64,000 nucleotides of DNA from a virus (IMGVR_UViG_2898133256_000001:28812-92811); one strand, 5' to 3'. Numbered from the stretch's first letter, positions 12,704 to 33,289 are shown. Notes: generated by a model from the letters alone, not told the origin. Numbers and translations: made by a program.

Positions 12704-13561
12704 CTAGGTCCCGGGCGCGCGTTGGGTGTTGGTGCTGAGTGGTTGAGGTTGGGGTCGTGTTTGAGGCTGTGGCTGAGGTTGAGGTTCAGACTTACGGAAG
12801 GAGAATGAGCCTTCCGTGAGTGAGTGTTGCACCCAGGGGCGTTGCGTCTTTTGGCTGGCTGTGAGGACCAATGTCGTGACTCGCCTGAACATCATGTCAA
12901 TGTCGTCGCCGTCGAATTTGTCGAGAGTTGCCAGTATCGCTGAGGCGAAAGGACTATTGGTGTTTGGCAATCCGTCGGAGGCGGCGTTGCCTGGTTGGGT
13001 GGAGAAGACGATGTATGCCCCGTCCACTCCGGCTTCAGGAACAAAGCCGACTCCTTCGCCTTGGCGGCTCGGGTCCGTGCGGCAAGCATCGAATATCATG
13101 ATGTTGAGGCCGGAGTAGTTTCTTTGGCTGAACTGAGACAAGAGTGACTGCAGGCTTGTTCGGCGGGGCCTGTTCGGGGTGTGATCAATGCCAAGTAAAT
13201 AGTTTATGCCGTTTGACTCGGCTCCATGCCCCGCGTAATGGAATAGTGCTGTGTCGTCGTTGGAGAGTATGTCGACGAAGGTTTCGACGGCGACGCCGAT
13301 GTTGCCGCCGCGAAGGTCTTTGCAGATGGTGACTGCAAAGCCTCGGCGCTCAAGTGCTTCGGCCATTGAGTCGACATCGCGAGCAGGGTTGCTCAAGGCG
13401 GGCAGCGCCGCGTAGTTGGTGTTCCCGATCAAAAGCGCCTTCCGGGGCGAGCTAGTTTTAGAAGGCTTACATCCCGATGGGAATATATTCTTGTCTGTCT
13501 GGGCACTCGCTACGGTTGGGTGCATCCAAAAGAGCAATGCTGCAATGAGCGCGATTCGCAT
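12704..13561 (-). CDS. Caspase-family (peptidase C14) protein with signal peptide
   Basis: KALLIGNTNY, LSNPARD, FHYAGHG (His), IFDACR (Cys), QRPW. Confidence 0.9.
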   Translation of the reverse strand: MRIALIAALLFWMHPTVASAQTDKNIFPSGCKPSKTSSPRKALLIGNTNYAALPALSNPARDVDSMAEALERRGFAVTICKDLRGGNIGVAVETFVDILSNDDTALFHYAGHGAESNGINYLLGIDHTPNRPRRTSLQSLLSQFSQRNYSGLNIMIFDACRTDPSRQGEGVGFVPEAGVDGAYIVFSTQPGNAASDGLPNTNSPFASAILATLDKFDGDDIDMMFRRVTTLVLTASQKTQRPWVQHSLTEGSFSFRKSEPQPQPQPQTRPQPQPLSTNTQRAPGT

Positions 13562-16635: not shown

Positions 16636-17691
16636 TCAGAGTCCAGATTTGAGTGCTTTGGTGGGGGTTGGGCCAAAGGGTTCAAAGTTCATTGTCGACA
16701 TCAGTGTTGCTGCTTTGAGGCGTTTGGCGAACAGGAAGGGCATGAAGGCATCGCTGAAATTTGAGCGACGGGTGACAGGAAACAAGATGCGCCAGTGGGC
16801 GGAACGGCCGTATTCGGTAGGCTCATCGCGCTCGATGAAATCCATTTCGGAAAGGAGTCGCAAGTCTCCTTCTGTGTCTGCCAGTTGGACCTTGCGGTTT
16901 ACGAGGTCGTAGTTCACGCGAGCCGAACGGCCAGGCTCGAGTGTGGCTGATGTCTGGTCTATAAGCCAGCCATAGAGTTCTCTGGTTAGACGAGGCAGGA
17001 AACTTAGCTTTGTAATGAATTCGTCCAGTCTGTCGCGGGCGTCATCCACGCTTGTGAAGAGACTTTCGGTCGTTTCATCACTGAAGAAGATGGTTGCATC
17101 CGATCGGATTACTGTTGGCATGGGTTCGACGAAATCAGCGATTGTGGTCGCGTATCCGCCTCCTGGCAGTCGTGGTTCGAGTTCAATGCGAATTCGAGCC
17201 TGCTCGTTTGCTACCTTTCTATGAACGGACTGAAGCGTTGTAATGTCTAGGCCCAGGATCTCGCGGCCCAGGTCGGTCATGTCGACCACATTTTTGCTTG
17301 TGAAGTTCAGAGCTGAGGCGGCGTCCGGGTCAAGATCGTACTTTGCTTTCTTTTCCCCAATGATGAGCACGAAAACCGTCTTGAACTTGGTGCGCTGCTC
17401 GTCTGTTATCTTCTTTAGTGTGGAGTTGATCTTTGTGGCGTCCGAGCGTGAGGTGATTTGAAATGCTATCTTTTCTGTTTCGTCGCCAAGATCGAGCCCT
17501 GGCTCGTTGCTCCGATCTGCATTTAGGTTCGTGAGATTGATCCCACGAACAAGGTTCAGGACATCTCGGAAGAAGTTCTCAAGTACTCCGTTTAAGTCAG
17601 TTTGACCCAGCGCACACCGCGCTCTGACTTGGCTGGCAATGGCGTCTAGGTCGTCGATGACTTGGCCCACAAAGAAACCCCTGCTTGACAT
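16636..17691 (-). CDS. SMEK-domain protein (candidate anti-phage defence)
   Basis: TDLNGVLENFFRDVLN...NLTNLN...PGLDLGD...AFQITS..KI..TL; lower GC. Confidence 0.8.
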   Translation of the reverse strand: MSSRGFFVGQVIDDLDAIASQVRARCALGQTDLNGVLENFFRDVLNLVRGINLTNLNADRSNEPGLDLGDETEKIAFQITSRSDATKINSTLKKITDEQRTKFKTVFVLIIGEKKAKYDLDPDAASALNFTSKNVVDMTDLGREILGLDITTLQSVHRKVANEQARIRIELEPRLPGGGYATTIADFVEPMPTVIRSDATIFFSDETTESLFTSVDDARDRLDEFITKLSFLPRLTRELYGWLIDQTSATLEPGRSARVNYDLVNRKVQLADTEGDLRLLSEMDFIERDEPTEYGRSAHWRILFPVTRRSNFSDAFMPFLFAKRLKAATLMSTMNFEPFGPTPTKALKSGL

Positions 17692-17974: not shown

Positions 17975-18058
17975 ATGGACCACCACGCTCTTGTCGCCGC
18001 GCTTTTCGCTGCTTCTGCCTTCGGCGCCGCTACCGCGCGGGCAAGGGGCGCCTTGTGA
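17975..18058 (+). CDS. 27-aa leader ORF coupled to the gpL-like gene
   Basis: MDHHALVAALFAASAFGAATARARGAL; its TGA overlaps the gpL GTG (GTGA). Confidence 0.4.
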   Translation: MDHHALVAALFAASAFGAATARARGAL

Positions 18059-18750
18059 GCATCGCCGAGGACATCCAGAAGTTGGAGCCAGGCGCCCTGG
18101 TGGAGCTCTTCGTCCTTGACGCGTCGTCCATCCCCGGAGGCGGCATCAGCCACTTCCACGCGGGCACTAACGGTCTGGGCGGGCCCGTGGTGTGGCAGGG
18201 CGCCTCGTACCAGCCCTGGCCCGTGCAGGCCCGCGGCTTCGAGAAGTCGGGCACCGGGCGCTTTCCCCGGCCCACGCTCACCATGGCCAACCTCCAGGGC
18301 ACGCTGGGGGCCCTCGCTCGGGACTGCAACGACCTGCTCGGTGCTCGCGTCATCCGCAAGCGCACCTTCGTCCGCTACCTGGACGCGGTGAACTTCCCCG
18401 GTGGCGTCAACCCCACCGCGAGCCCGTCCGAGGGCTTCCCGGACGACGAGTTCGTCGTGGATGCGAAGACGACGGAGAACAAGCACCTCATCGAGTTCAC
18501 CCTCGCGGCGCGGTGTGACCTGGAGGGTGTCCGCATCCCCCTCCGCGTCATCACCCAGATGTGCGGGTGGCAGTACCGAGGGGAGGGGTGTGGCTATGCT
18601 GGGCCTCCAGTGGCTCGGGCCGATGACTCGCCGACGTCCAGCCACATCGAGGACAGGTGCGGGAAGCGCCTCTCAAGCTGCAAGGCGCGCTTCGGGGCTA
18701 CGGCCGTTCTTCCGTACGGGGGCTTTCCGGGCGTGGGATTGCTCCGGTGA
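18055..18750 (+). CDS. Minor tail protein L (lambda gpL-like)
   Basis: QKLEPGALVELF, PRPTLTMAN, RKRTFVRYLDAVNF, C.W.YRG.GCGY, D.CGKRLSSC..RF, GGFPG. Confidence 0.93.
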   Translation: MSIAEDIQKLEPGALVELFVLDASSIPGGGISHFHAGTNGLGGPVVWQGASYQPWPVQARGFEKSGTGRFPRPTLTMANLQGTLGALARDCNDLLGARVIRKRTFVRYLDAVNFPGGVNPTASPSEGFPDDEFVVDAKTTENKHLIEFTLAARCDLEGVRIPLRVITQMCGWQYRGEGCGYAGPPVARADDSPTSSHIEDRCGKRLSSCKARFGATAVLPYGGFPGVGLLR

Positions 18751-19694: not shown

Positions 19695-22070
19695 CTATGC
19701 GCTTGTTATGATACGAACAGGCAGGTGGGTCGCAATTGGGGATAGAATCCGGAACTGCTGTCGGACTAGGTCGTAAAGTGGAACGTTCGCGTCCGCGCGT
19801 ATGGTTGCCACCATGGTCATATTTAGGGGAGGTACTTTCCTGGTGAGTCCTCCGTCGTCACGGCTTGTATGTATGAGGTCTAGCCGCGGCAGGTAGAGGT
19901 CAGAGGCGCTGAAGCGAACGCGACCCCGGAGGATTGTTTCCCATTTGCCTGCTGCTCGGCGGGAGCTCTCATGGCCAGATTTCAGCCGATTTGAATGGGC
20001 TTTCGGAGCGTAGCTGATTGTCCATCCATCGAGGACTAGTTGTTCGGTGTCGATCTTGTCGAGCCTCACGTCCATGGATTCGTCTTTTCGTGTTGCAGAG
20101 CGAATCAGGTCGTGAGGTCGAAAGATTTCTTCGATACTGCTCAGTGTGTAGTCCGTCGCATCCGACGGGTCGATTTTGGATGTGAATGCTATCGTCCAAT
20201 CGATTTCGATGGTTGTGAACTCGTCAATGCCGGTGCGTGGTACGGGCAGCCGCATTGCAACGACTTCGTCCCGTGCGAGCGTGTCTTGGTAGATGACGCT
20301 CACCTCATGTGGTGCGCATGCGAAGATTTCGTTGTATGAGCTAGGTATGCGGCCGAAGCCTAGTTCGATGGAATTGTGCCCGCGCTGTGCGCGCTCGGAA
20401 AAGTGGGCACTGAAGGAACGAATGGCTGAAGGGGTTGTTCGTTTCTTCCCTAGAATTGTGCCAAGTTGAACCGCTCCGCGCATCGCTAGTGGCGACGCAA
20501 GGCTTGTCCCTGCGGATTCGACGTAGCGGCCGCGCTGATCAAGTCCACCAAAAGGCAGTTCGTCACATCCGCCAAAGGCAACGCAAATAGGTTGAACACG
20601 CTGGCCAGCACGCCCTGGACCAATGGCGCTGTAGCTGGCTCGAACGGCTTTTTTGCCTGCGTGCGTGCTTGTCGCACCAATGGCCAGTCCGTTTACCATG
20701 TCGCCAGGGACTTGGACTCTATTGAAGCCGAGCTTGCCGTCTTCGTTGCCATTGTTTCCCGCAGCAAGGAAAAACGTAACGCCCAATTCTTCGGCTAGAG
20801 TGTCGAGCTGCGAAGTCCAGTAATGAGGGTCGCCGTCGTCAACAACTTCATCGGGACCGAGACTTAGGTTTACAAACTTGTATTTGCGCTCGCGGACTGT
20901 GTTCTTGATGGAGTCGAGGCATTGATACAGGCCGTGGTCGAATTTGGTCGACGGGGCAAGGGGAAGGACGCGAAAATGATCAACATAGGCTACAGGCGTT
21001 TGGAGGACTGTGTCGGTAGGCGCAATGTGGCCAAAGAGGAAAGCACTTGTTACCATCGAGCCATGTCTCATATCCTCACTTGTCGGAGCGGCCGTAGTTA
21101 GGTCTTCGGCCGTCACGAATGGTTGGAGGTAAGGACTCAGCTGATTAATGCCTCCGTCGAAGATCGCCACTCGCTCATTTGTAAGAGGCCGTGCATCTGC
21201 GGCTGGAGGAGTTGGTCTCTTAGAGGAGCTTGCAGTTCGTCGGAACGTCGGCCGATACGGTCGAATCGACGGCATCGGTCGAATGGCTCGCACGAGGTTG
21301 AATCGCGCGGCCTCATGTATTGCTTCCGCGTGAAGTGCGATGGGGACAAATATGACGCCGCCTAGTTCTCTACGGAATTCGATGTCAACATCTCCATCGA
21401 GGTCCCGTATGTGCTTGACCCAGCGTAGGAATGCCTCTGGTTCCAGGTCTGACCGCTCATTCTTGTTGCGCCCGATCGGATTGAGGACGGTCTCCCACGT
21501 GATGACTTCGCCATCTCCAAGAGCCACCTTAGGGGCTTTGACGATGTCGTCTGGAGTGGCCAAGCGGATTTCCGAGAGTTCGCGTAGCTTGCTCCATTCG
21601 GGGTCCTTCTCTCCAACGGGCCTGCGCATTGCTGCGTTCGCGAAGCTGAGGACGTGAGCGGGGTCGCCTGCAATTAGGATTGTCTTGGTTGGAGCGTCGT
21701 CTTTTTGTTTCTTCTTTGTTTTGAGGACGCCCGTTGCTTGGCGAGTTCCGACCGGATAGAGGCTATGTGCCTCAAGCAATGCAGTTGGAAAATATGAGGG
21801 CGCCAAGTAGTTTGGAAGCAGGGTTGCTTCGAAGACAATATGGCGCGCTCTTAATGCTTGTGGCATTTTCGTTACTGCTTTTGCTAGTGACCCTGCCTGT
21901 GGTGCCAGCAGTGCATGAGCTTCGGCTAAAGTGTGTGGATGGAACTTGGGGCGACCGCCCTGCGCGATCGTGACAACCTCCCTTAGATGTTCCCCTCCAC
22001 CCAATAGTGGGCGCCGAACTTCTGGGCCGCCGCGACCACCACTTCCCTTTCCATCATTGCTTTTTTCCAT
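19695..22070 (-). CDS. S8 family serine protease (IetS/Y4bN-like)
   Basis: Catalytic D (AIFDGG), H (RHGSMV), oxyanion N (AAGNNG), S (GTSLASP). Confidence 0.9.
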   Translation of the reverse strand: MEKSNDGKGSGGRGGPEVRRPLLGGGEHLREVVTIAQGGRPKFHPHTLAEAHALLAPQAGSLAKAVTKMPQALRARHIVFEATLLPNYLAPSYFPTALLEAHSLYPVGTRQATGVLKTKKKQKDDAPTKTILIAGDPAHVLSFANAAMRRPVGEKDPEWSKLRELSEIRLATPDDIVKAPKVALGDGEVITWETVLNPIGRNKNERSDLEPEAFLRWVKHIRDLDGDVDIEFRRELGGVIFVPIALHAEAIHEAARFNLVRAIRPMPSIRPYRPTFRRTASSSKRPTPPAADARPLTNERVAIFDGGINQLSPYLQPFVTAEDLTTAAPTSEDMRHGSMVTSAFLFGHIAPTDTVLQTPVAYVDHFRVLPLAPSTKFDHGLYQCLDSIKNTVRERKYKFVNLSLGPDEVVDDGDPHYWTSQLDTLAEELGVTFFLAAGNNGNEDGKLGFNRVQVPGDMVNGLAIGATSTHAGKKAVRASYSAIGPGRAGQRVQPICVAFGGCDELPFGGLDQRGRYVESAGTSLASPLAMRGAVQLGTILGKKRTTPSAIRSFSAHFSERAQRGHNSIELGFGRIPSSYNEIFACAPHEVSVIYQDTLARDEVVAMRLPVPRTGIDEFTTIEIDWTIAFTSKIDPSDATDYTLSSIEEIFRPHDLIRSATRKDESMDVRLDKIDTEQLVLDGWTISYAPKAHSNRLKSGHESSRRAAGKWETILRGRVRFSASDLYLPRLDLIHTSRDDGGLTRKVPPLNMTMVATIRADANVPLYDLVRQQFRILSPIATHLPVRIITSA

Positions 22071-23259
22071 TCGACTGTGCCCCCGCTTTTCTCTTTGGCC
22101 TGAGGTCTTGCCCGCTGGTTGAGTTGGTGGTTGCCCAGTGCCGTATGTATTTTCCTACAGTGACGTGGGATACGTCTAGATGCTGCGCGATCTCGCGCTG
22201 CGTCATGCCGAGCATGGCGTTGGCCAAGCCAGCATAGGAAATGCGTTGTGCCTCCGACCCGCGCTTCAAATAGTTCAGCGCGCGTGCTGTGAGAATCGGT
22301 GTCAGGTGTGGGTCATTTCCGACTACGAAATCTCGAATGGCTTCAGAGGTTAGTCTTCCTATGTCGGAGCCTGACATTCCGGTGGTCGCAATTGCAAGTG
22401 TGGTGACGTCTCCGTCAGCTAGCGACTGGTTGTGAGTTGCTAGCGTCCGTATGAGAATTGCGTGGCGAAGAGCGAGGTCTGGGAGGGGCAAGCTGAGAGT
22501 CCGTTCGAAACGTCGCCACACTGCTCGGTCGAGAAGTTCAGGATGGTTTGTCGCGGCAACGAGTAGCCCCGTTGGAGGCCACCGGTCGATTTCCTGCAGC
22601 AGGACGTTGACGATCCTCTTTAGCTCGCCAACATCGCTGTCATCGTCTCGGCGCTTGGCGAGGGCGTCGAACTCGTCGAGAAAGAGGACTGACCTGTTTC
22701 GCTGGCCGAAGTTCAGGGCTTGCCGCAAGTTCTGCCCAGTTTTCCCTAACAGGGAAGAGACTAGGGCCGCCAAGTCTACGGTGAAAAGTGGCCATCCGAT
22801 CTGGGCAGCAAGGTATCTCGCCGTCATCGTCTTTCCGACCCCGGGGGCGCCCGTGAGTAGAAGTGTTCGAGTTGGCTCTAGCCCGGCGGCTTGGAGGACT
22901 TGTGGGCGCTTTCTCTCGGCTACCACCTGCTGGACCACTCGCTCGACGTCGTTCGGAAGGAACGGTGACGGAGCCTCATCTGCTTCGTCGACATGGACTA
23001 GGGGGAAGAAGGAGGAGTCATCGACGGGGGGCGATTCCCGACTGATGTGATGTGTGCGGCCATCATTTGAGCGTCGAAGACTCCTGGACGGCTCCGACTC
23101 GCTCAGCAGAGGGACTAGAAGTTCACGGAGCCTGACCTCATCTGGGGACTGTTTGTCGGAAGCCTTGGTGAGCCGGGAGGCGAGGCGGCGGATGGATGCT
23201 TGGTCGCCTAGGAGTCCGAGCCGAACGAGGTCGGCGATCATCTGAATGAAGTCCGTCAT
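22054..23259 (-). CDS. AAA+ ATPase (IetA-like) with C-terminal HTH
   Basis: GAPGVGKT, LFLDEFD, AATNHPELLDRAVWRRF; TQREIAQHLDVSHVTV HTH; overlaps the S8 gene. Confidence 0.9.
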   Translation of the reverse strand: MTDFIQMIADLVRLGLLGDQASIRRLASRLTKASDKQSPDEVRLRELLVPLLSESEPSRSLRRSNDGRTHHISRESPPVDDSSFFPLVHVDEADEAPSPFLPNDVERVVQQVVAERKRPQVLQAAGLEPTRTLLLTGAPGVGKTMTARYLAAQIGWPLFTVDLAALVSSLLGKTGQNLRQALNFGQRNRSVLFLDEFDALAKRRDDDSDVGELKRIVNVLLQEIDRWPPTGLLVAATNHPELLDRAVWRRFERTLSLPLPDLALRHAILIRTLATHNQSLADGDVTTLAIATTGMSGSDIGRLTSEAIRDFVVGNDPHLTPILTARALNYLKRGSEAQRISYAGLANAMLGMTQREIAQHLDVSHVTVGKYIRHWATTNSTSGQDLRPKRKAGAQSNGKKQ

Positions 23260-23353
23260 TGGTAACCCTTGGTAAGTCCTATTACCAATGTTCACATCGT
23301 GAGCATGAAGACGCAATGACGGCGGTGGTAACCGTCGGTCTTCCTACTTACCA
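23259..23353. promoter_or_regulatory. TGGTAA/TTACCA operator-like boxes upstream of the ATPase
   Basis: TTGGTAA-N6-TTACCAA at 23269-23288, plus boxes at 23259, 23326 and 23348. Confidence 0.55.
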
Positions 23354-23467: not shown

Positions 23468-24199
23468 ATGTCCCCCGTAGTCACGCCCGAGTTCTCCTCG
23501 GCCGCTGTCGCCTCCGCTGTTGCGCATGCCCGCGCGGATTTTCCTCGCGAGTCCTGCGGGTTGGTGGTGCGCGTCGCGGGAGAGCTGGTCTATCGGCCCT
23601 GCCGGAACCTCGCTGCGGGCCAAGCCCACTTCCACCTTGCGCCAGAGGACTTCGCGAGCGCCGAATCAGCAGGCGAGGTGGTGGCGGTGGTGCACTCCCA
23701 CCCTAACGCCTCCCCGGAGCCGAGCGAGGCGGACCGCGTGATGTGCGAGCGCTGGGGCCTACCCTGGCTCATCATCAACGTGCCGGTGGGGCACTGGCAG
23801 GTGCTGTACCCCTCGGGCTACCGCGCGCCGTTGCTGGGCCGGGAGTTCTCCCACGGCGTCCTGGACTGCTTCTCCCTCATCCGCGACTACTACCGCGAGA
23901 CGCTGGGCCTGGAGCTGCCCGACTTTGAGCGCCCCGACGACTGGTGGGCTAAGGGCGGGAACCTCTACCTGGAGGGCTACGAGAAGGCGGGCTTCGTCGA
24001 CGTGACGGGCTCGCCGCTGCGCGAGCACGACGTCCTCCTCATGCAGCTCCGGGCGAAGGTGCCCAACCACGCGGGCGTCTACTTGGGCGCGGACGTCGTC
24101 CTCCACCACCTCCAGGCTTCGCTCTCCAAGAGGGAGACGTACAGCGGCTTCTGGGCACGGGTGACTCGGAAGGTTGTGCGGCATCGCACCCTATGCTGA
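23468..24199 (+). CDS. Tail tip assembly protein K (JAB/MPN + NlpC/P60)
   Basis: PRESCG, VHSHP...PSEAD (JAB); GVLDCFSLIRDYY, NHAGVY (C40). Confidence 0.95.
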   Translation: MSPVVTPEFSSAAVASAVAHARADFPRESCGLVVRVAGELVYRPCRNLAAGQAHFHLAPEDFASAESAGEVVAVVHSHPNASPEPSEADRVMCERWGLPWLIINVPVGHWQVLYPSGYRAPLLGREFSHGVLDCFSLIRDYYRETLGLELPDFERPDDWWAKGGNLYLEGYEKAGFVDVTGSPLREHDVLLMQLRAKVPNHAGVYLGADVVLHHLQASLSKRETYSGFWARVTRKVVRHRTLC

Positions 24200-25269
24200 C
24201 GACGGTGGTGCTCGGCGGGCCCCTGGGAGCTCGCTTCGGGCGGGAGTGGAAGCTGGAGCTGGGAGTGCCCTCGCCCGCGGAGGCGGTGCGGGCCCTCTGC
24301 GCGGTGTGCGCGGGCTTCAGCCGCTACCTCGCGGAGAACAGCGCGCCCGGCTACCACGTCCTCGTCGGCGAGCGCGATGTCGGCGCCAAGGAGCTGGGCG
24401 TCGTCACGGGCGAGAAGCGCATCACCATTCTCCCGGCCCTGGCGGGCGCGAAGCAGGCGGGTGTCCTCCAGGTGGTGCTGGGCGCGGTGCTCATCGCCGG
24501 CGGCGCGGTTCTCTCCGTCTACGACTACGGCGCGGTGGGCGGACAGCTCATCGCCCTGGGCAGCAGCCTCGTGGTGGGCGGCGCCGCGCAGCTCCTCTTC
24601 AAGCCGCCCTCGGCCACGGGCCCGCTGGAGAAGCCCGACACCCAGCCCAACTACGTCTTCAACGGGCCGGTGAACACGCTGGCCCAGGGCCACCCGGTGG
24701 CCCTCTGCTACGGCGAAATGGTGGTGGGGAGTTGCGTGGTGTCCGCTGGCATCTCCACCGAGTGGAGCGCGGGCGGCGGCTTCGGCGGCTCCGGGAGTGG
24801 CCAGCACGGCCCGGGTGGGCAGGGGCCCGTGGGCGGAGGGTGCCCGGCGCCGTGGGTGCCCATTCTCCTCTCGGACGGCCGCGAGGTGCACGCGGGTGAC
24901 GTGCGCGTGGGCGCGTGGGTGCGCACCCAGGACGAGGTGACGCTGGAGTGGGGCGACTACCCCGTCTCCCACGTCTCCACCCTGGAGGCGGAGTGCTGGC
25001 GCCTGGTGCTGGAGGACGGCCGGGAGCTGGTGGGCACCTACAACCACCGGGTGCGCACGGAGGCCGACTGGGTGGAGCTGCGCCACCTGGACGCGGGCAT
25101 GCGCCTCGTCGGCGAGCGACCCGGCGTGGTGGCCCGCGCGGAGGCGGCCGGGCGCGGCCCCGTGGTGCGCATCACCGTGGCGGGCGCGCACACGTACCAG
25201 ACGGTGGGCTTCCTCTCGCACAACACCAAGAACGAGGACCCGGAGCGGCCCCATGACGAAGCACCTTGA
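24193..25269 (+). CDS. Tail assembly protein I (lambda gpI-like) fused to a C-terminal Hint domain
   Basis: LGGPLGARFGR, SPAEAVRALC, NYVFNGPVNTLAQGHPVALCYGE; then GGG|CPAPW...GTYNH...LSHN|T. Confidence 0.9.
   Translation: MLTTVVLGGPLGARFGREWKLELGVPSPAEAVRALCAVCAGFSRYLAENSAPGYHVLVGERDVGAKELGVVTGEKRITILPALAGAKQAGVLQVVLGAVLIAGGAVLSVYDYGAVGGQLIALGSSLVVGGAAQLLFKPPSATGPLEKPDTQPNYVFNGPVNTLAQGHPVALCYGEMVVGSCVVSAGISTEWSAGGGFGGSGSGQHGPGGQGPVGGGCPAPWVPILLSDGREVHAGDVRVGAWVRTQDEVTLEWGDYPVSHVSTLEAECWRLVLEDGRELVGTYNHRVRTEADWVELRHLDAGMRLVGERPGVVARAEAAGRGPVVRITVAGAHTYQTVGFLSHNTKNEDPERPHDEAP
24841..25224 (+). other. Hint (intein-like) domain, 128 aa
   Basis: Cys1, block B TxxH, terminal His-Asn, +1 Thr; no endonuclease. 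Confidence 0.85.
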
Positions 25270-27772
25270 GCGGGGGGCGCTGCGAGGCGCGGGCGGGGGA
25301 AGCGGAGGGAAGGGCGGAGGCGACGCCCAGCGCTCGCCTGTGGAGTCCCCGGACACGCTGAAGTCCGCCGCGCACGCGCGCGTGCTGGACGTGTTGTGCG
25401 AGGGGGAAATCGAAGGACTCGTCGGTGGGCTGAAGGGCGTCTTCCTGGACGGCGTCCCGGTTCACACCATCAACGACGCGCCCAACTTCCGCGACGTCAC
25501 CGTGTACGACGTCCCGGGCACCCAGGGGCAGGAGTACATCCCTGGCTTCACCGCGGCGGAGGCGGAGTTCAACGTCAACGCGGAGGTGAAGAAGAACCTG
25601 CCGGCCGTCCGCACCATCTTCGATGCGGAGGTGGACGCGGTGCGCGTCACGCTGCAGGTGCCGCAGTTGACGTTCCAGCACCCCGAGACGGGGGACTTGC
25701 AGCCGTCCACCCTCAACGTCGCCATCGACGTGCAGAGCAACGGCGGTGGTTGGGTGGAGCAGGACCTGCAGGGCGCGGGCGTCATCCGAGGGAAGTGCAC
25801 CAGCCCCTACGAGAGGACGTACCGCGTGGAGCTCACCGGCAGCCCGCCGTGGGACATCCGCGTGCGGCGCCTCACGCCGGACTCCGACACCGTCGCCCTC
25901 CAGAACCGTACGTTCTGGAAGTCCTACGCGACGTTGATTGACGAGAAGCTGAGCTTCCCGAACACCGCCATCGTGGCCCTCGAGGTGTCGGCCCGGCAGT
26001 TCGGCAGCGTGCCCACGCGCAGCTACCGGATTCGCGGGCTGAAGGTGAAGGTGCCCAGCAACTACAACCCAGCGACGCGCGAGTACTCGGGTACGTGGGA
26101 CGGCACCTTCCAGGTGGCGTGGACGGACAACCCGGCGTGGTGCCTGTACGACTTGTTGACGACGAAGCGGTACGGCCTGGGGCGCTATCTGGACGAGGCC
26201 CAGGTGGACAAGTGGGGCCTGTACACGGTGGCCCGCTACTGCGACGAGCTGGTGCCGGACGGCAAGGGCGGCATGGAGCCGCGCTTCACCTGCAACCTCT
26301 ACCTCCAGACGCAGGCGGAGGCGTACCAGGTGGTGGGCAACCTCGCCTCCATCTTCAGAGGACTCGTCTACTGGGCCAGCGGCGCGGTGTACGTGGCCCA
26401 GGACGCGCCCCGGGACGCGGAGTACCTCTTCACGCCCTCCAACGTGGTGGACGGCCTCTTCACCTACTCGGGCACCTCGCGGCGCGCGCGGCACACCGTG
26501 GCGTTGGTGACGTGGAATGACCCCGGCAACCAGTACAAGGCTGCGGTGGAGCACGTGCCGGACGAGGAGGGGATGCTCGACTACGGCTACAACCCCACGG
26601 ACGTGGTGGCGCTGGGGTGCACCTCGCGCAGCCAGGCGCAGCGGGTGGGCCGGTGGCTGCTGCACACCGAGCGGCTGGAGACGGAGACGGTGGTGTTCCG
26701 CACGGGCATGGAAGGCGCCCTGCGCAACCCCGGCGCCGTCGTGAAGGTGGTGGACCCGACGCGCGCGGGACGGCGCTGGGGCGGGCGGGTGGTGGAGGCC
26801 ACCGCGTCGCACGTGGAGCTGGACGCGGACGTCACCCTCGAGGCTGGGAACACGTACACCCTCTCCGTGGTGCTGCCCGACGGCACGGTGGAGGAGCGGC
26901 CGGTGGCGACCCTGCCGGCGGCGCCCTACCGCGCCCTCACGCTGGCCGCGCCGTTCTCCGCCGCGCCCGTGGCCCAAGCCGTCTGGGTGCTGGCGGCGAA
27001 TGACTTGGTGCCCACCCTCTGGCGCGTGCTGGCCGTCGCCGAGGTGGAGCCGCACGTCTTCGAGGTGACGGCGCTGGCGCACCACCCGGGCAAGTACGCC
27101 GCAGTGGAGCAGGGGGTGAAGCTCCAGCCGCTGCCCACCTCCGTGCTGCCCTCGTCATCCCCACCCGAGGGGCTGGTGGTGGGGGAGGGGCTCTACAAGA
27201 CGACAAACGGCGGGGTGCGGGTGCAGCTCAACGCGCGGTGGACGCAGCGGCCCGGCGCCGTCGCGTACGTCGTGCGCTGGCGCCTGTCCGAGGGCAACTG
27301 GAGTGCCGAGGACCGCCTCCAGACGCACTTCTGGGAGCTGGCGGACGTGGCGCCGGGGCCGTACCGGGTGCAGGTGGCGGCCGAGCTGGGAGGCTTCACC
27401 ACCGCGTTCAGCGAGGCGGCGTACACCGTACTGGGCAAGGCGGCGCCCCCGTCGGACGTGGCGGGCTTCCAGTGCACGCTCAACGGCAACACCGTCACGC
27501 TTCGGTGGGCGGAAATCCCGGACCTCGACAGGGACATGTACGAGCTGCGGTATGGGGGCTCGAGCTGGGAGACGGCCTCCCTCATCGCCAAGGTGCGCGC
27601 CACCTCCTTCGAGTGGGCCCTGCCGGCGCTCGGCGTCAACCAGGTGGTGCGCCTCAAGGCCATCGACACCACCGGGAACTACTCCACCAACGCAGTCAGC
27701 CTCACGGTGGTGGCGGCGCCCACGGTGCCGTCCTCCATCACCATGACGGTGTCCTCGACGCCGCCGGCCTAG
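25253..27772 (+). CDS. Central tail tip / host specificity protein J-like
   Basis: CEGEIEGL, VPSNYNP.TREYSGTWDGTF..AWTDNPAW, EPRFTCN, GCTSRSQAQRVGRW; FN3-like C-terminus. Confidence 0.95.
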   Translation: MTKHLERGALRGAGGGSGGKGGGDAQRSPVESPDTLKSAAHARVLDVLCEGEIEGLVGGLKGVFLDGVPVHTINDAPNFRDVTVYDVPGTQGQEYIPGFTAAEAEFNVNAEVKKNLPAVRTIFDAEVDAVRVTLQVPQLTFQHPETGDLQPSTLNVAIDVQSNGGGWVEQDLQGAGVIRGKCTSPYERTYRVELTGSPPWDIRVRRLTPDSDTVALQNRTFWKSYATLIDEKLSFPNTAIVALEVSARQFGSVPTRSYRIRGLKVKVPSNYNPATREYSGTWDGTFQVAWTDNPAWCLYDLLTTKRYGLGRYLDEAQVDKWGLYTVARYCDELVPDGKGGMEPRFTCNLYLQTQAEAYQVVGNLASIFRGLVYWASGAVYVAQDAPRDAEYLFTPSNVVDGLFTYSGTSRRARHTVALVTWNDPGNQYKAAVEHVPDEEGMLDYGYNPTDVVALGCTSRSQAQRVGRWLLHTERLETETVVFRTGMEGALRNPGAVVKVVDPTRAGRRWGGRVVEATASHVELDADVTLEAGNTYTLSVVLPDGTVEERPVATLPAAPYRALTLAAPFSAAPVAQAVWVLAANDLVPTLWRVLAVAEVEPHVFEVTALAHHPGKYAAVEQGVKLQPLPTSVLPSSSPPEGLVVGEGLYKTTNGGVRVQLNARWTQRPGAVAYVVRWRLSEGNWSAEDRLQTHFWELADVAPGPYRVQVAAELGGFTTAFSEAAYTVLGKAAPPSDVAGFQCTLNGNTVTLRWAEIPDLDRDMYELRYGGSSWETASLIAKVRATSFEWALPALGVNQVVRLKAIDTTGNYSTNAVSLTVVAAPTVPSSITMTVSSTPPA

Positions 27773-27783
27773 CGGGACTCACC

Positions 27784-29886
27784 ATGCGCTCACGCGAGCA
27801 GGAAATGCAGGGCGGCATTGTCGAGGACGGAGAGCCGGGCCAGCCGCGCCCGCGCGTCATCAAACCGAAGTACCTCGACATCCGCTGGACGCATGAGGAG
27901 ACGCTTCCCGCCCACCTCCTGGAAGGCTTCCAGGTGGCAGTCTTCACGGGGAACGACCCGAACAACGCTGACGCCTACCTCGTTGAGCCCAAGCGCGTAG
28001 GGCCTGCGGAGCGCCGCGTGGTGGTGACGCTGCGGGTGACGTCCACCACGAGCGCGAAGTGCGCGGTGCAGGCTCTCTACGCCAACGGCAACCAGGGAAG
28101 CTGGAGGGTGCTGGGCGGCACCGTGGTGGCGGACCCGGATACCCTCACGGTGGCGACGCAGACGCTGTCCAACGTGCCCGACGGCAGCGTCGACACCGGC
28201 CTCCTGAGCCCGGGGGCGGTGACGTCCAGCAAGGTGGCGCCGGCCGCCATCGCCACGCAGCACCTGCTGCTGCCGCCCTCGGACAACCTGGTGCCCAACG
28301 GCTACGGCGAGGCGGGCACCGCTGCGCTGGGGAACTCTCCGGAGGGGGACTTCCTCGTGGAGGAGCCGGCCAACGCGAAGGAGGGCCGGTGGTGCCGCAG
28401 GGTGCCTCTCAACGCGGCCGGGTACCGCACCGCTGTCTGGACGAAGCGGATTTCCTGCGCGGCGGGCGACGAGTTCTCCGCGGAGGCGTGGTTGAAGTCG
28501 TCCGCGCCGCTGTCGGGCAACCAGGGGGGAGGGCTGTACTTCTTCTGGTTGGACGCCTCGGGCAACTACGCGGGTGCCAACACCCTCACGGTGGTGTCGG
28601 GACTCACCACCGCGTACCAGCGGTACAAGGTGAAGGGGGCGTGCCCGGCCGGGTGCACTGGCCTCCTGCTCGTCTGGGAGCTCAACGCGGCCGCCGCGGA
28701 TATCGGCAAGGCGGTGTACCTGGACGCCATCAGCTTGCGGAAGTCGGTGACGTTCGACTTGCTGAGCGCCAACACGTTGCAGACGTCCAACTACGCGGAG
28801 GACGGCAGCGGAGTGCCCGTCGCGGGCGCGAAGCTGGACAACGTGGGCGTGGCGCTGAAGGTGGCCAGCCAGAATCTCCAGGTGGGCCGCTACCCGCTCG
28901 AGGCGCTCTTCTACAAGGGGCTGGTGACGTTGGACGGGCCGGGGCCCGGCAACCGCTGCTTCTATCGTGGCAACAACCAGGGCGCGGTGCGCGGCGGCGC
29001 GCCCAACATCGACCGCGTGCGGGTGGAGTGCGCGGACAACATCACCACCGCGTCCCTCTCCTGGGCGACGTGGCAGATCTTCCTCCAGCCCCAGGCGCTG
29101 GACGACAACTTCGACGCCATGAGGTACGCGCGCGTGGAGCTGTGGGTGCGGCCGACTGCTGGAAGTGCATTCCGTCACCAGGTGCTGCACGTCGCGCTGA
29201 CGGACAGGGTGTACCGGGACGCCACCGAGTCCTCGGCGAACAATGAGGGCCGCGCGAGCTGGAGCTACATGTTCTCGGGCTCGGCATCCGCACTCAGCAC
29301 CTCGGCGACGTCCGTCTGGTACCTGCTGGTGTCCGTCGTCAACGCGTACGGGGCGAGCGCCTCGAAGTGGTTCGTGCCGGCCGCCGGCCGCAACGCGGCC
29401 TTCGCCTCCCAGTACAACTCGCCGGTGGGTGGCGGCGTCGACGGCGGCGGCGGTGGCGGTGGCAGCGACGGGGGCGGGTACTGCCCCGCGCCGTGGGAGC
29501 CCATCCTCATGGAGGACGGGAGCGAGCTGCCGGCGGAGCTGGTGCGGCCCGGCATGCGCGTCCTCACCCAGCACGAGACGTCCCTGAAGCTGGACGCCTA
29601 CCAGGTGGCCGCCGTGCAGCGCGCCCGCGCGCATTGGCACCGGCTGACGCTGGAGGACGGGCGCTCTGTCGTGGCCTCCAGCCTCCACCCCCTCTTCGTC
29701 GACGGCGCCGGCTGGACGGCGCTCTCGGCGCTGCGCGCGGGGGACACGCTGCTCGGCTCCCGGCCTGGCCGAGTGGTGGGCGTCGAAGCGGTGGGAGAGG
29801 GCGACGTCGTGCGCCTCACCGTCCACGGGGCCCGCACCTACAACGTGCAGGGCCTGCTGTCACACAACGCGAAGCCCCGCGAGTAG
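27784..29886 (+). CDS. Tail fibre / receptor-binding protein with carbohydrate-binding-like domain and C-terminal Hint domain
   Basis: Follows J; GAVTSSKVAPAAI, NLVPNGYGEAG...VYLDAISLR; GGGY|CPAPW...SSLH...LSHN|AKPRE. Confidence 0.8.
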   Translation: MRSREQEMQGGIVEDGEPGQPRPRVIKPKYLDIRWTHEETLPAHLLEGFQVAVFTGNDPNNADAYLVEPKRVGPAERRVVVTLRVTSTTSAKCAVQALYANGNQGSWRVLGGTVVADPDTLTVATQTLSNVPDGSVDTGLLSPGAVTSSKVAPAAIATQHLLLPPSDNLVPNGYGEAGTAALGNSPEGDFLVEEPANAKEGRWCRRVPLNAAGYRTAVWTKRISCAAGDEFSAEAWLKSSAPLSGNQGGGLYFFWLDASGNYAGANTLTVVSGLTTAYQRYKVKGACPAGCTGLLLVWELNAAAADIGKAVYLDAISLRKSVTFDLLSANTLQTSNYAEDGSGVPVAGAKLDNVGVALKVASQNLQVGRYPLEALFYKGLVTLDGPGPGNRCFYRGNNQGAVRGGAPNIDRVRVECADNITTASLSWATWQIFLQPQALDDNFDAMRYARVELWVRPTAGSAFRHQVLHVALTDRVYRDATESSANNEGRASWSYMFSGSASALSTSATSVWYLLVSVVNAYGASASKWFVPAAGRNAAFASQYNSPVGGGVDGGGGGGGSDGGGYCPAPWEPILMEDGSELPAELVRPGMRVLTQHETSLKLDAYQVAAVQRARAHWHRLTLEDGRSVVASSLHPLFVDGAGWTALSALRAGDTLLGSRPGRVVGVEAVGEGDVVRLTVHGARTYNVQGLLSHNAKPRE
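29482..29868 (+). other. Hint (intein-like) domain, 129 aa
   Basis: Cys1, block B SxxH, terminal His-Asn, +1 Ala; no endonuclease. Confidence 0.85.
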
Positions 29887-29916: not shown

Positions 29917-30450
29917 ATGTCCCTGACGTCCTCAGAGGTGTACCAGCGCAATGCCGTCGAGTCCCGCAAGCGCGACGTGTCGTGCGCGCTGGCCCGCGTG
30001 CGCGGAGAGCTCGACGCCGCGGGCGCCTCCGCCCGGCACTTCGCCACCGTCGGCCAGGGGCTCCAGGTGCGCCGCGCGGAGCTGGAGGGCGAGATGCAGG
30101 CACTGGCGGCCAGCGGCGTCGCCGGGCTCACCGACGATTGGGGCAAGTACAGCGCGCTCGAGCTGGCGGCCCAGGAGGAGCGCTACCCCGCCAAGGCCCT
30201 CGCCTACGACTGGCTGGTGGCGCACCCGACGGCCACCTTCCTGGAGACGGCGGGCGAACTGGAGCGCCTCATGCTGGAGGCGCGCACCGCGGCGGGCCGG
30301 CCCTGGCTGCTGTGGCGCGCGGACGGGCTGCTGCGCGAGTGGCAGGCCAACGCGGTTGCCCGGGGGCACGTCGCCGGCAACACGTGGGAAGCGTTTCGGG
30401 ACTACCTCCTCGTCATCGGGAAGGATGCTGCCCTCGGGGGCATGTTGTGA
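29917..30450 (+). CDS. Hypothetical phage tail-region protein
   Basis: AGGAG RBS; phage-like codon usage. Confidence 0.7.
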   Translation: MSLTSSEVYQRNAVESRKRDVSCALARVRGELDAAGASARHFATVGQGLQVRRAELEGEMQALAASGVAGLTDDWGKYSALELAAQEERYPAKALAYDWLVAHPTATFLETAGELERLMLEARTAAGRPWLLWRADGLLREWQANAVARGHVAGNTWEAFRDYLLVIGKDAALGGML

Positions 30451-30567: not shown

Positions 30568-31302
30568 ATGCCTCTCGGCACGTGGGAACGGACGCTTCCG
30601 GTCAGAACCTCGAAGGGGTGGCCCGAGCCCGCGAAGTGGCAGCCGTGCGCGTTCTGCGGAAAGCCAGCGCATGCTCTGGCGGAGGCGCCCGGGTCGAACG
30701 ACGGCAACTCCGGGACGCTGAGTAGGAACATCCTCAATGGAGCGGAGCCTGAATCGCACCCGTGGTTCACGGGCTCCTACTCGATTGCGGCGCACCACCT
30801 CATCTGCTCGGAGTCGATGAGCGGTGATGAGGACTGGGCCTGCATCTGCTGGTACTTCGGGTACGACATCAATGGACCGAAGAACGGCGTGTTCCTGCCG
30901 TCGGTGCCCTCGGTGGCGTGCGAGCTCCACGTCCCAGTTCACCGCGGCCCGCACTTCGGTGGCTGGGCCTACGACATGGACCTCTCGTATCCCGAGGCGG
31001 TGATGGAACTACTGGAGGGCTATGCCGAGTCGGCGCGTCGCGGGCGCTACTGTGGCAATCCTTCCGGGCTGGGCAGCGACCTTGATGGGCTCAGCGGCAC
31101 CATCCTGCGCAAGGTGGCGACCGGACGGTGGACCATCACCACCGACGGCCTCGACTACCAGGCTGGGGGGAACGGCTGCTCTGGGGTGACGAGCCTCCAG
31201 GGGAAGCCGCCGCTGCCCTGTCCACGTGGGCGGCGCCACGGCTCGCGACACGGGACGACAAGGAAGCCTCTCGCTCGCCGTACGCTTCAGGTGGGGGCCT
31301 AG
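30568..31302 (+). CDS. AHH-family HNH nuclease toxin
   Basis: IAAHHLI, GYDING.KNGVFLP, HRGPH. Confidence 0.85.
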   Translation: MPLGTWERTLPVRTSKGWPEPAKWQPCAFCGKPAHALAEAPGSNDGNSGTLSRNILNGAEPESHPWFTGSYSIAAHHLICSESMSGDEDWACICWYFGYDINGPKNGVFLPSVPSVACELHVPVHRGPHFGGWAYDMDLSYPEAVMELLEGYAESARRGRYCGNPSGLGSDLDGLSGTILRKVATGRWTITTDGLDYQAGGNGCSGVTSLQGKPPLPCPRGRRHGSRHGTTRKPLARRTLQVGA

Positions 31303-31304
31303 TC

Positions 31305-31883
31305 GTGCAGCGCGAGTACTTCGTTCTGAAGCGAGCGCGCTCCCAAGAGCACCCGCTGCTTGCGTGGGCGCAGTCTGCGGCAGCGTTCCGCAAGGGCGGC
31401 AAGGTCGCAGAAGACGTGCCTGTGCAGCTCCGCCTTGGTGAGCCCGAGCCGTCCAGACCAATCATGGTCGACCACCACAGTCTGCCGGCCCCCGTCGTTT
31501 CGCCGCGACTGAAGACGGTCCTGGAGTCTGCGAAGCTCGAGGGAGTCCAGTTCGTGCCGGCGGACGTTCACGTGCGCGACTCGGTGCTCCGTTATTGGCT
31601 GGTCCACATGTGGCGGCGAATCGCCTGTATGGACCCGGAGCGCTCGGTCTACGAGCGGTCGCCGAGCGGCGCCACGCTGATGGGATTGGACCGCCTGGTG
31701 CTCGACGAGTCTGTTCTCGGCGACATCCCGGTGGAAGAGCGACTGGCCTTCCGTCTCGACGAAGCGGTTGTCCACCTCTTCCATCGTTCGGTGGTGGAGC
31801 AAGTGCTTTCGATGTCGCCTCCACCGGAGGGGCTGCGGTTCATCCCGGTGGAAGAGTGGAACGACTCCTCGGCATTCCGGTGA
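31305..31883 (+). CDS. Cognate immunity protein (Imm11/DUF1629-like)
   Basis: PVVSPRLK..LE...VQFVP...YWLVH...CMD.ERS...LVLDE...FRL; starts 2 nt after the AHH stop. Confidence 0.8.
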   Translation: MQREYFVLKRARSQEHPLLAWAQSAAAFRKGGKVAEDVPVQLRLGEPEPSRPIMVDHHSLPAPVVSPRLKTVLESAKLEGVQFVPADVHVRDSVLRYWLVHMWRRIACMDPERSVYERSPSGATLMGLDRLVLDESVLGDIPVEERLAFRLDEAVVHLFHRSVVEQVLSMSPPPEGLRFIPVEEWNDSSAFR

Positions 31884-32836: not shown

Positions 32837-33289
32837 ATGTCCGCCCAGCGCAATGCCTTCCTCGTCGCCGTCCTCTCGCAGATGCATGCGCCCTACCGGT
32901 GGAACGGCAAGGGCGAGCGCGACAGCACCACCGGCCAGCGCGTCTTCGACTGTTCGGGGTTGGTCACCTGGGCATTCCGCGAAGCGGGCGGCCCAGACTG
33001 GCGCGCCCACGCCAACACCGACGTCCTGTGGGCGCGGTGTGCGGTCGTGCCGGAGGCGGAGCTGCTCCCCGGCGACCTGGTGCTGTACCACCGCAAGGGC
33101 GACCCCACCGACGCGGAGCACGTCATGGTTCACGTGGGCGGAGGCGTGGTGGTGGGCGCCTCCGGAGGCGGGAGCACGACGCTCACCCTGGCCGACGCCG
33201 CCAAGGCCAGGGCGTACGTGAAGACGTTCTCCAGTCTCGACTACCGCGCTCGTCGCATGGGTATCCGACGCCTGCCGTTCCGGCCGTGA
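32837..33289 (+). CDS. NlpC/P60 (C40) peptidase, probable endolysin
   Basis: PYRWNG...FDCSGLV, LLPGDLVLY, EHVMV. Confidence 0.85.
   Translation: MSAQRNAFLVAVLSQMHAPYRWNGKGERDSTTGQRVFDCSGLVTWAFREAGGPDWRAHANTDVLWARCAVVPEAELLPGDLVLYHRKGDPTDAEHVMVHVGGGVVVGASGGGSTTLTLADAAKARAYVKTFSSLDYRARRMGIRRLPFRP

Follow-up and report, generated by a model that had tools for sequence, protein, structure and literature searches.

C-terminal Hint domains with a flanking lysine on the gpI-like protein and tail fibre of a Myxococcus-type prophage

Type-A bacterial intein-like (BIL) domains, reportedly described by Amitai et al. in 2003 and Dassa et al. in 2004, and BIL2 of the Tetrahymena thermophila BUBL1 polyubiquitin-like locus (PDB 6Y75/6TMM), reportedly described by Chiarini et al. 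in 2021, are the nearest described counterparts of a C-terminal module carried by two tail proteins encoded in IMGVR_UViG_2898133256_000001:28812-92811, a DNA stretch of 64,000 nucleotides (the window; positions are counted from its first letter). The type-A class is defined by a conserved His-Asn, the lack of a +1 nucleophile and of an endonuclease, and location in variable proteins, and BIL domains without a +1 nucleophile yield mainly N- and C-cleavage products (PMC7664689; PMC7765530). In BIL2 a nucleophilic lysine of the C-extein is reported to give a K(ε-NH2)-to-C-terminus isopeptide (PMC8616854). Both the Hint chemistry and the BIL/PT-HINT domain family are already known.

The window, with a G+C content of 70%, contains a lambda-like prophage tail module of a Myxococcus-type genome in the order tape measure, gpM-like, gpL-like, gpK-like, gpI-like and gpJ-like gene, followed by a 700-amino-acid protein at the side-fibre position. 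The gpI-like protein and this fibre each end in a Hint domain; the gpJ-like protein of the same tail module does not carry one. From the sequences we consider it fairly probable that each Hint is a self-contained type-A BIL-like module, predicted to be competent, which would remove itself in cis and serve as a transient C-terminal module for the folding or assembly of trimeric tip proteins.

Hint domains at the ends of two tail proteins

The whole gpI-like tail assembly protein (24193–25269, plus strand) has 358 amino acids, arranged into four parts. The tail assembly/insertion body (residues 1–190; 24193–24762), which would be the N-extein of Hint 1, is matched over residues 2–190 by PHROG 32 'tail assembly protein' (E 5.8e-53) and is about 48% identical to ordinary 200-residue gpI homologues bearing PF06805, while the protein itself has no Pfam match at E ≤ 0.01. 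A Gly-rich linker recognized from the sequence (residues ~191–216; 24763–24840) follows, with GGG abutting Cys1; in the alignment, the ordinary gpI homologues (~200 residues) stop exactly at its start. Hint domain 1 (128 residues, Cys217–Asn344; 24841–25224) begins with CPAPW, has T-Y-N-H as block B, ends in LSHN and is matched by the family hidden Markov model (HMM) at E 1.9e-54. The C-tail consists of 14 residues starting T-K, plus the stop codon (25225–25269). All the parts of both proteins lie on the plus strand.

The fibre (27784–29886) starts at the ATG at 27784 and has the same length, 700 residues, as the database homologue P0115. Its N-terminal anchor of 132 residues (27784–28179) is 69% identical to the first 132 residues of the fibre of Myxococcus sp. 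Y35 (L003) and is common to fibres with unrelated distal parts. The distal part (28180–29415), presumably receptor-binding, is swapped as a cassette together with the Hint and has no Pfam or PHROG match. The poly-Gly linker (29416–29481), also recognized from the sequence, abuts Cys1 with G-G-G-Y; its predicted local distance difference test score (pLDDT) is below 50 in the whole-protein AlphaFold model, which has a mean pLDDT of 50.7 and is confident only in a β-sandwich at residues ~190–320 and in the Hint. Hint domain 2 (129 residues, Cys567–Asn695; 29482–29868) has S-S-L-H as block B, ends in LSHN and is 49% identical to Hint 1 (BLASTP 2e-35). The C-tail, A-K-P-R-E plus the stop codon (29869–29886), offers no nucleophile in its +1 Ala and has the conserved Lys at +2.

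The assignment of Hint 2 is carried by AlphaFold, Foldseek and a profile comparison with the PDB. The AlphaFold (AF2) model of the domain reached a pLDDT of 96.1 and a predicted template modelling (pTM) score of 0.88. A Foldseek search with this model returned solely Hint-fold proteins, at template modelling (TM) scores of 0.80–0.89 and a probability of 1.00, led by BIL2 (6y75, TM 0.89) and followed by the Ssp/Npu DnaB mini-inteins, gp41-1, Hedgehog (1at0, 0.85) and a BIL domain (2lwy, 0.84). Consistently, a 24-sequence profile searched against PDB sequences matched 8w20 at 3.3e-12, the gp41-1 intein at 1e-10 and the C. thermocellum BIL 2lwy at 3.4e-9. The profile was needed: the single gpI Hint gave no significant match in the PDB by phmmer, and Pfam and PHROG scans of the whole gpI-like and fibre proteins found no Hint match. 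In the isolated domains the Intein_splicing and intein-containing NCBIfam models also match, below threshold. By model and sequence together, both domains are genuine Hint domains with intact catalytic residues, and we regard the fold as settled.

A first-pass annotation of the window had already described, at the end of both proteins, a Gly-rich linker, a domain of 128 or 129 residues starting CPAPW and a tail of 14 or 5 residues, with a T/SxxH block B, LSHN ends and no homing endonuclease; all of these are present, as is the fibre end at 29886. Its proposal of a Hint fold is confirmed by the structure prediction and profile searches, and its view of the domains as alike but diverged, with catalytic residues kept, agrees with their 49% identity and with the conservation across the family. 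It was also right that lambda gpI carries no Hint, as the length and end point of the ordinary homologues indicate.

Conserved residues and the predicted chemistry

A profile of both Hint domains was searched against 1.84 billion cluster representatives and matched 2464 proteins at E ≤ 1e-3, 519 at E ≤ 1e-10 and 51 at E ≤ 1e-30. Position and tail statistics were taken from the best 150 matches together with the homologues of the gpI-like and fibre proteins. The Hint usually sits at the extreme C-terminus of proteins 200 to more than 3000 residues long; the tail behind it measures at most 15 residues in 105 of 182 cases and more than 40 in 65 of 182, and the extensions of more than 40 residues found in some relatives have no Pfam match. 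Cys1, the block-B His and the terminal His-Asn are each conserved in 162 of 163 aligned domains, and Ser or Thr is located three residues ahead of the block-B His in 148 of 163. The terminal His-Asn is kept even when the tail has only 4–5 residues. On the upstream side, position -2 is Gly in 108 of 166 copies and position -1 varies (G, T, S, Y, A). The fibre Hint of a distant phage that carries both domains (L006:16791-17198) ends in Gln-Ser-Asn instead of Ser-His-Asn, its penultimate His being replaced and its Asn-Ile-Lys kept.

The flank downstream of the terminal Asn is equally constrained. Lys occupies position +1 or +2 in 172 of 177 copies, compared with a Lys background of 3.2%, and in 104 of the 105 copies with short tails; in gpI orthologues +1 is T, L, V, W or A and the next residue is always Lys. 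By count, the flanking Lys is as invariant as the catalytic residues. Cys, Ser or Thr is found at +1 in just 10 of 177 copies, and without one of these residues there can be no canonical splicing. Nor do 128 or 129 residues leave space for a homing endonuclease. Lacking both a conserved +1 nucleophile and an endonuclease, the domains are therefore classed as type-A BIL-like Hints and not as splicing inteins. Judged from the residues present, canonical intein splicing is excluded, and so is a Hedgehog-type adduct region, with only 5 or 14 residues beyond the terminal Asn in the two proteins and no adduct-recognition region among them. The module, as read from the alignments, is laid out as a Gly-rich linker, Cys1...(S/T)xxH...Ser-His-Asn, and then x-Lys and a short tail.

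The processing, its timing and its purpose we infer, taking the reaction steps from established Hint chemistry. An N-S acyl shift at Cys1 would convert the peptide bond that joins the tail protein to its Hint, Gly|Cys for gpI and Tyr|Cys for the fibre, to a thioester; with the thioester resolved and the terminal Asn cyclised, a Hint of ~14 kDa would leave the mature tail-tip protein. The outcome could be cleavage or a non-canonical ligation to the short tail. The role would be analogous in function to that of the S74 intramolecular chaperone of other fibres, with unrelated chemistry; a Pfam scan found no peptidase S74 match in either protein. For gpI, the lambda protein offers a guide. Residues 135–223 of lambda gpI form a trimeric plug, and from this structure a 14-kDa domain on a flexible linker of ~25 residues would be expected to hang at the hub surface and may need removal. 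By this analogy, the bulky Hint plausibly has to be removed, or is tolerated outside the hub.

Several points weigh against transient self-removal in the service of folding or assembly. The isolated Hint domains score 13.4 and 23.6 bits against Pfam PT-HINT, below the gathering cutoff of 27.7. A tblastn search with both Hints against 50,697 deposited phage genomes gave no match but a weak one to a terminase intein, that is, no cultured phage carrier at this sensitivity. Plain N-terminal cleavage would need neither the terminal His-Asn nor the flanking Lys; since these are as conserved as Cys1 even with tails of 4–5 residues, a module that is cut off and discarded appears an incomplete account. 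The chaperone role is drawn by analogy only. Finally, an open reading frame (ORF) of 177 amino acids directly 3' of the fibre gene (29917–30450) varies together with the fibre cassette, and the actual chaperone of the fibre could be its product.

The conservation of the flank may be explained by a refinement of the favoured reading, which we put forward tentatively. Standing in for the absent +1 nucleophile, the ε-amine of Lys +2 (or +1) would attack the Cys1 thioester and Asn cyclisation would free the Hint, so that gpI and the fibre would end in a branched, isopeptide-linked peptide of 5–14 residues. Both the lysine counts and the retention of His-Asn ahead of tails of 4–5 residues fit such a reaction. 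In the Hint fold of inteins the two junctions lie side by side, and the nearest solved structure is that of BIL2, in which a C-extein Lys reportedly plays this part. The similarity to BIL2 amounts to only ~14% identity, however, the model shows no ordered structure for the tail (pLDDT 49), and the Lys may instead aid Asn cyclisation or serve otherwise. If there is a ligation acceptor, it would most simply lie in cis and not in a cross-linked tail tip.

Carriers of the module and pairing of the two Hints

The partner domains and PHROGs of 63 family members were scanned, and genomic context was sampled at about 40 loci and 63+10 proteins. PT-HINT matches 31 of the 63 members and Intein_splicing 15. 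Their partner domains include Phage-tail_3, FNIII-A_GpJ, Rcc01698_C, PB4_spike, CBM_4_9, fn3 and PKD. Many members have PHROG labels of the tail, among them central tail fibre J (5 members), gpI, tape measure, tail fibre and various tail or host-specificity proteins. Fusions of gpI to a Hint recur in at least 4 further clusters at 50% identity (P0142, P0163, P0259 and P0215) and, more distantly, in P0035; on contigs L005 and L006/L007 they lie within complete L-K-I-J tail modules. The module is present in IMG/VR contigs and in prophages.

Other architectures were seen as well. Five members (P0246, P0133, P0141, P0151 and P0191) contain arrays of 2–5 tandem Hints, either back-to-back with Gly spacers of 1–6 residues or split by short, very basic Arg/Lys-rich peptides; P0246 has five back-to-back Hints behind a signal-like N-terminus. 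The layout resembles polyprotein release or BUBL-like arrangements. On one IMG/VR contig of 46% G+C (L024:9001-9423) the Hint ends a 1764-residue open frame with gpJ similarity, a J-Hint fusion, and on another of 52% G+C (L023:9001-9393) the Hint is followed by a tail of 65 residues resembling those of P0256 and P0260.

The distribution is patchy. Most gpI homologues are without a Hint, and at E ≤ 1e-20 the module is present in only 14 of the 201 species genomes of Myxococcaceae. The gpI Hints of different phage lineages do not form one clade, and the fibre Hint moves with the exchangeable distal cassette. These features, together with the description of BILs in hypervariable regions of non-conserved proteins (PMC7765530), would suit a largely selfish or neutral passenger, either a BIL-type module that moves between hypervariable tail genes or a mere stretch of 3' homology for swapping receptor-binding cassettes, which would remove itself so as to spare the host protein and have no assembly function. 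We think this unlikely. The module encodes neither an endonuclease nor anything else that would make it mobile, it always follows a Gly linker at the C-terminus and never lies within a conserved site, and within the myxophage lineage the Hint phylogeny tracks its host protein. A selfish appendage would be easily lost through a stop codon, yet at least 519 clusters keep the Hint. Ratios of nonsynonymous to synonymous substitution (dN/dS) between orthologues are 0.36–0.53 for the gpI Hint and 0.28–0.71 for the fibre Hint, compared with 0.20–0.43 for the gpI body; on these alignments both Hints are under purifying selection, somewhat weaker than that on the gpI body. The suggestion in the first-pass annotation that selection, rather than a parasitic intein, accounts for the domains thus agrees with the substitution ratios and the lack of a homing function.

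The same annotation had gone on to propose a paired virion-maturation system, in which the two Hints cooperate and activate the Gly-rich C-termini for tail-tip cross-linking or for attachment in trans of a small molecule or host surface group. Thioesters can indeed pass to external nucleophiles, as in Hedgehog, and BIL2 conjugates to other substrates (PMC8616854). Moreover, the pair recurs: it is inherited as a pair in much of this myxophage lineage, namely in this prophage, L001, L002, L013–L019, G189 (twice), G163 and G180, and both Hints are also found in one distant phage of 62% G+C (L006/L007). The two Hints nevertheless also occur apart. Four loci have a gpI Hint only (L003, L005, L020 and L021); the fibres of L003, L020 and L021 share only the first 132 residues, without a Hint, and comparison with L003 shows no homology beyond residue 132. 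Fibre- or J-only loci comprise L024, L025, G096, G195, G106 and G081; in elements with a Hint on one such protein only, the carrier is a ~1080-residue protein, a 1764-residue gpJ-like frame or another fibre.

The history of the domains points the same way. In a tree of 163–167 Hint domains, the myxobacterial Hints from gpI and those from the fibre fall into two distinct, supported clades whose common ancestor spans 99 of 163 leaves, and Hint pairs are 48–49% identical within a genome and 47–48% between genomes. The two are old paralogs without within-genome co-variation. With its variable -1 position the module shows no GG signature of the ubiquitin-like kind, the Hint has no adduct-recognition region behind it, and no partner gene common to all the Hint-bearing loci compared was found. 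The pairing is thus not obligate, and the two copies are independent members of a large family that do not make up a two-component system. With gpJ, tape measure and other tail proteins capped too, the proposal of a paired system did not hold up, and we now consider it very improbable.

Two further candidates were tried and rejected. A recent intragenomic duplication, or gene conversion between the Hints, is contradicted by the separate clades and the lack of excess identity within genomes. A ubiquitin-like GG junction does not fit the variable -1 residue, and the ubiquitin-like part of gpI is N-terminal, far from the junction.

One more explanation is a Hint retained on the virion as a latent thioester 'warhead' or release latch that would fire at host contact, coupling the fibre tip covalently to a surface nucleophile or releasing gpI at ejection. 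N-cleavage by inteins may be slow when no nucleophile attacks, and the fibre Hint is at the distal tip, the site of contact with the receptor; upon opening, lambda gpI is believed to fall toward the outer membrane (PMC11101478). The conserved intramolecular Asn and Lys point instead to self-resolution, and one such mechanism is hard to fit to gpI, gpJ, tape measure and fibres alike. We regard it as highly improbable, and retain transient self-removal in cis as the reading for both proteins.

Neighbouring genes and comparison with known systems

Upstream in the tail module lie the tape measure gene (5570–9463), the gpM-like gene (~15.9–16.5 kb) and the gpL-like gene (18055–18747). The gpK-like tail assembly protein (23468–24199, plus strand) combines a JAB/MPN peptidase with an NlpC/P60 domain (Pfam Prok-JAB 1.2e-18, NLPC_P60 9.6e-13), and its gene is directly upstream of the gpI-like gene, the two overlapping. 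Between gpI and the fibre, the gpJ-like central tail fibre/hub protein of 839 residues (25253–27772, plus strand) matches Pfam FNIII-A_GpJ at 1.7e-39 and Phage-tail_3 at 1.9e-24. The 177-residue ORF downstream of the fibre, on the plus strand, has no Pfam or PHROG match. It directly follows the fibre in L001 and L002 too and is absent from L003 and L006, which have another fibre type, and moves as one cassette with the fibre Hint and the distal fibre part; it is possibly a fibre accessory or assembly protein.

Between 9500 and 23350 the tail module is broken three times by mostly minus-strand cargo of 55–61% G+C. The first block, from tape measure to gpM, includes a caspase-family Peptidase_C14 protein (12704–13561). 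The second, from gpM to gpL, encodes a SMEK-domain protein (16636–17691); gpM and gpL are adjacent in L001. In the third, from gpL to gpK, the gene for an AAA ATPase with a helix-turn-helix (22054–23316) overlaps that for a Peptidase_S8 protein (19695–22070). These blocks look like defence or addiction islands. Further downstream, an AHH-family HNH/EndoVII nuclease (Pfam AHH 1e-9) and an overlapping downstream ORF (30568–31883) lie between the fibre cassette and the lysis genes, and an NlpC/P60 protein (32837–33289; 4.9e-13), the second such domain besides that of the gpK-like protein, is probably the endolysin. A functional tie of the Hints to the AHH nuclease, of the kind seen in polymorphic-toxin release, was considered and rejected. 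The AHH/immunity pair occurs in L003 as well, along with a fibre that lacks a Hint, and is therefore unlinked to the Hint; nor do the Hint tails contain a toxin.

Literature on Hint, BIL or intein-like domains together with phage tails or fibres yielded only ordinary inteins in terminases or polymerases and papers on polymorphic toxins. In the literature searched, neither the capping of phage tail-tip proteins by a terminal Hint, nor its fusion to gpI, nor the Gly...Asn-x-Lys signature was found described. The first-pass annotation had likewise known of no description of the paired arrangement. NCBI already names the fibre homologues 'Hint domain-containing protein'. If processing takes place as predicted, a large class of tail-tip proteins (at least 519 clusters at E ≤ 1e-10) would be matured by a thioester chemistry absent from the searchable phage-assembly literature. 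Predicted masses and C-termini of receptor-binding proteins would then be off by ~14 kDa, and fibre or tailocin engineering would gain a built-in self-removing or self-ligating tag. In the gpI fusion, the plug protein, which passes through the gpJ hub, would have a removable domain at its end. To intein research, the invariant Lys beside the terminal Asn would offer a case outside ciliates in which nucleophile-free or Lys-directed ligation can be tested directly. A broader idea, which we offer as speculation and regard as doubtful, is that the Gly-linker/Hint/Asn-x-Lys cap is a widespread, undescribed tail-tip maturation chemistry of gpI, gpJ, fibres and tape measure, in which the flanking Lys, in place of a +1 Cys, Ser or Thr, resolves the Cys1 thioester. 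The Hint would excise itself and the C-terminus would be left with an isopeptide branch or, depending on context, covalently joined to another protein or to the host surface. Bacterial viruses would then have their own version of the ATP-independent conjugation by BIL2 in ciliates.

Among known systems, lambda gpI (PF06805, PHROG 32) corresponds to residues 1–190 of the gpI-like protein, in a gene likewise placed between gpK-like and gpJ-like genes, but proteins of the lambda type have ~200–223 residues and no Hint. The canonical mini-inteins (Ssp/Npu DnaB, gp41-1) share the fold and the residues of blocks A, B and G; unlike them, the module has no +1 Cys, Ser or Thr, lies outside any conserved site of an essential enzyme and has almost no C-extein. 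Hedgehog/Hog proteins also have a C-terminal Hint (TM 0.85 to 1at0) by which the bond closing the N-terminal domain becomes a thioester, whereas here the sterol- or adduct-recognition region is lacking and the terminal Asn, unused in Hedgehog, is conserved. For a role in folding followed by removal, the closest functional analogy is the peptidase S74 chaperone of tailspikes, tail fibres and endosialidases, likewise a C-terminal self-removing module on receptor-binding proteins; its fold and chemistry are unrelated, S74 having a Ser-Lys dyad in a trimeric helical domain.

BIL2 is the best structural match, and both it and the present module have a Lys in the C-flank, which in BIL2 is reported to resolve the thioester (PMC8616854). 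Apart from the low sequence identity, BIL2 differs in its setting between two ubiquitin-like domains, whereas here Cys1 is preceded by a Gly linker, itself behind the C-terminal region of gpI or the fibre, and the C-extein is a peptide of 5–14 residues. The type-A BIL domains (2LWY, approximately Pfam PT-HINT) share the Hint fold (TM 0.84), Cys1, the block-B His and the terminal His-Asn, as well as the lack of a +1 nucleophile and endonuclease and the location in variable, non-conserved proteins. In contrast to them, both domains fall below the PT-HINT gathering score, and the module occupies the extreme C-terminus with a tail of 4–16 residues, not a place ahead of a toxin or other cargo; it has a Gly-rich linker before it and a near-invariant Lys after it, and its carriers are phage tail-tip proteins. 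In sequence terms, the Gly linker and the flanking Lys are family-specific additions to the type-A BIL features. What is new here is that the module also caps the plug protein gpI, that the flanking Lys is by count as invariant as the catalytic residues, and that a single tail carries two copies of independent, old paralogous descent.

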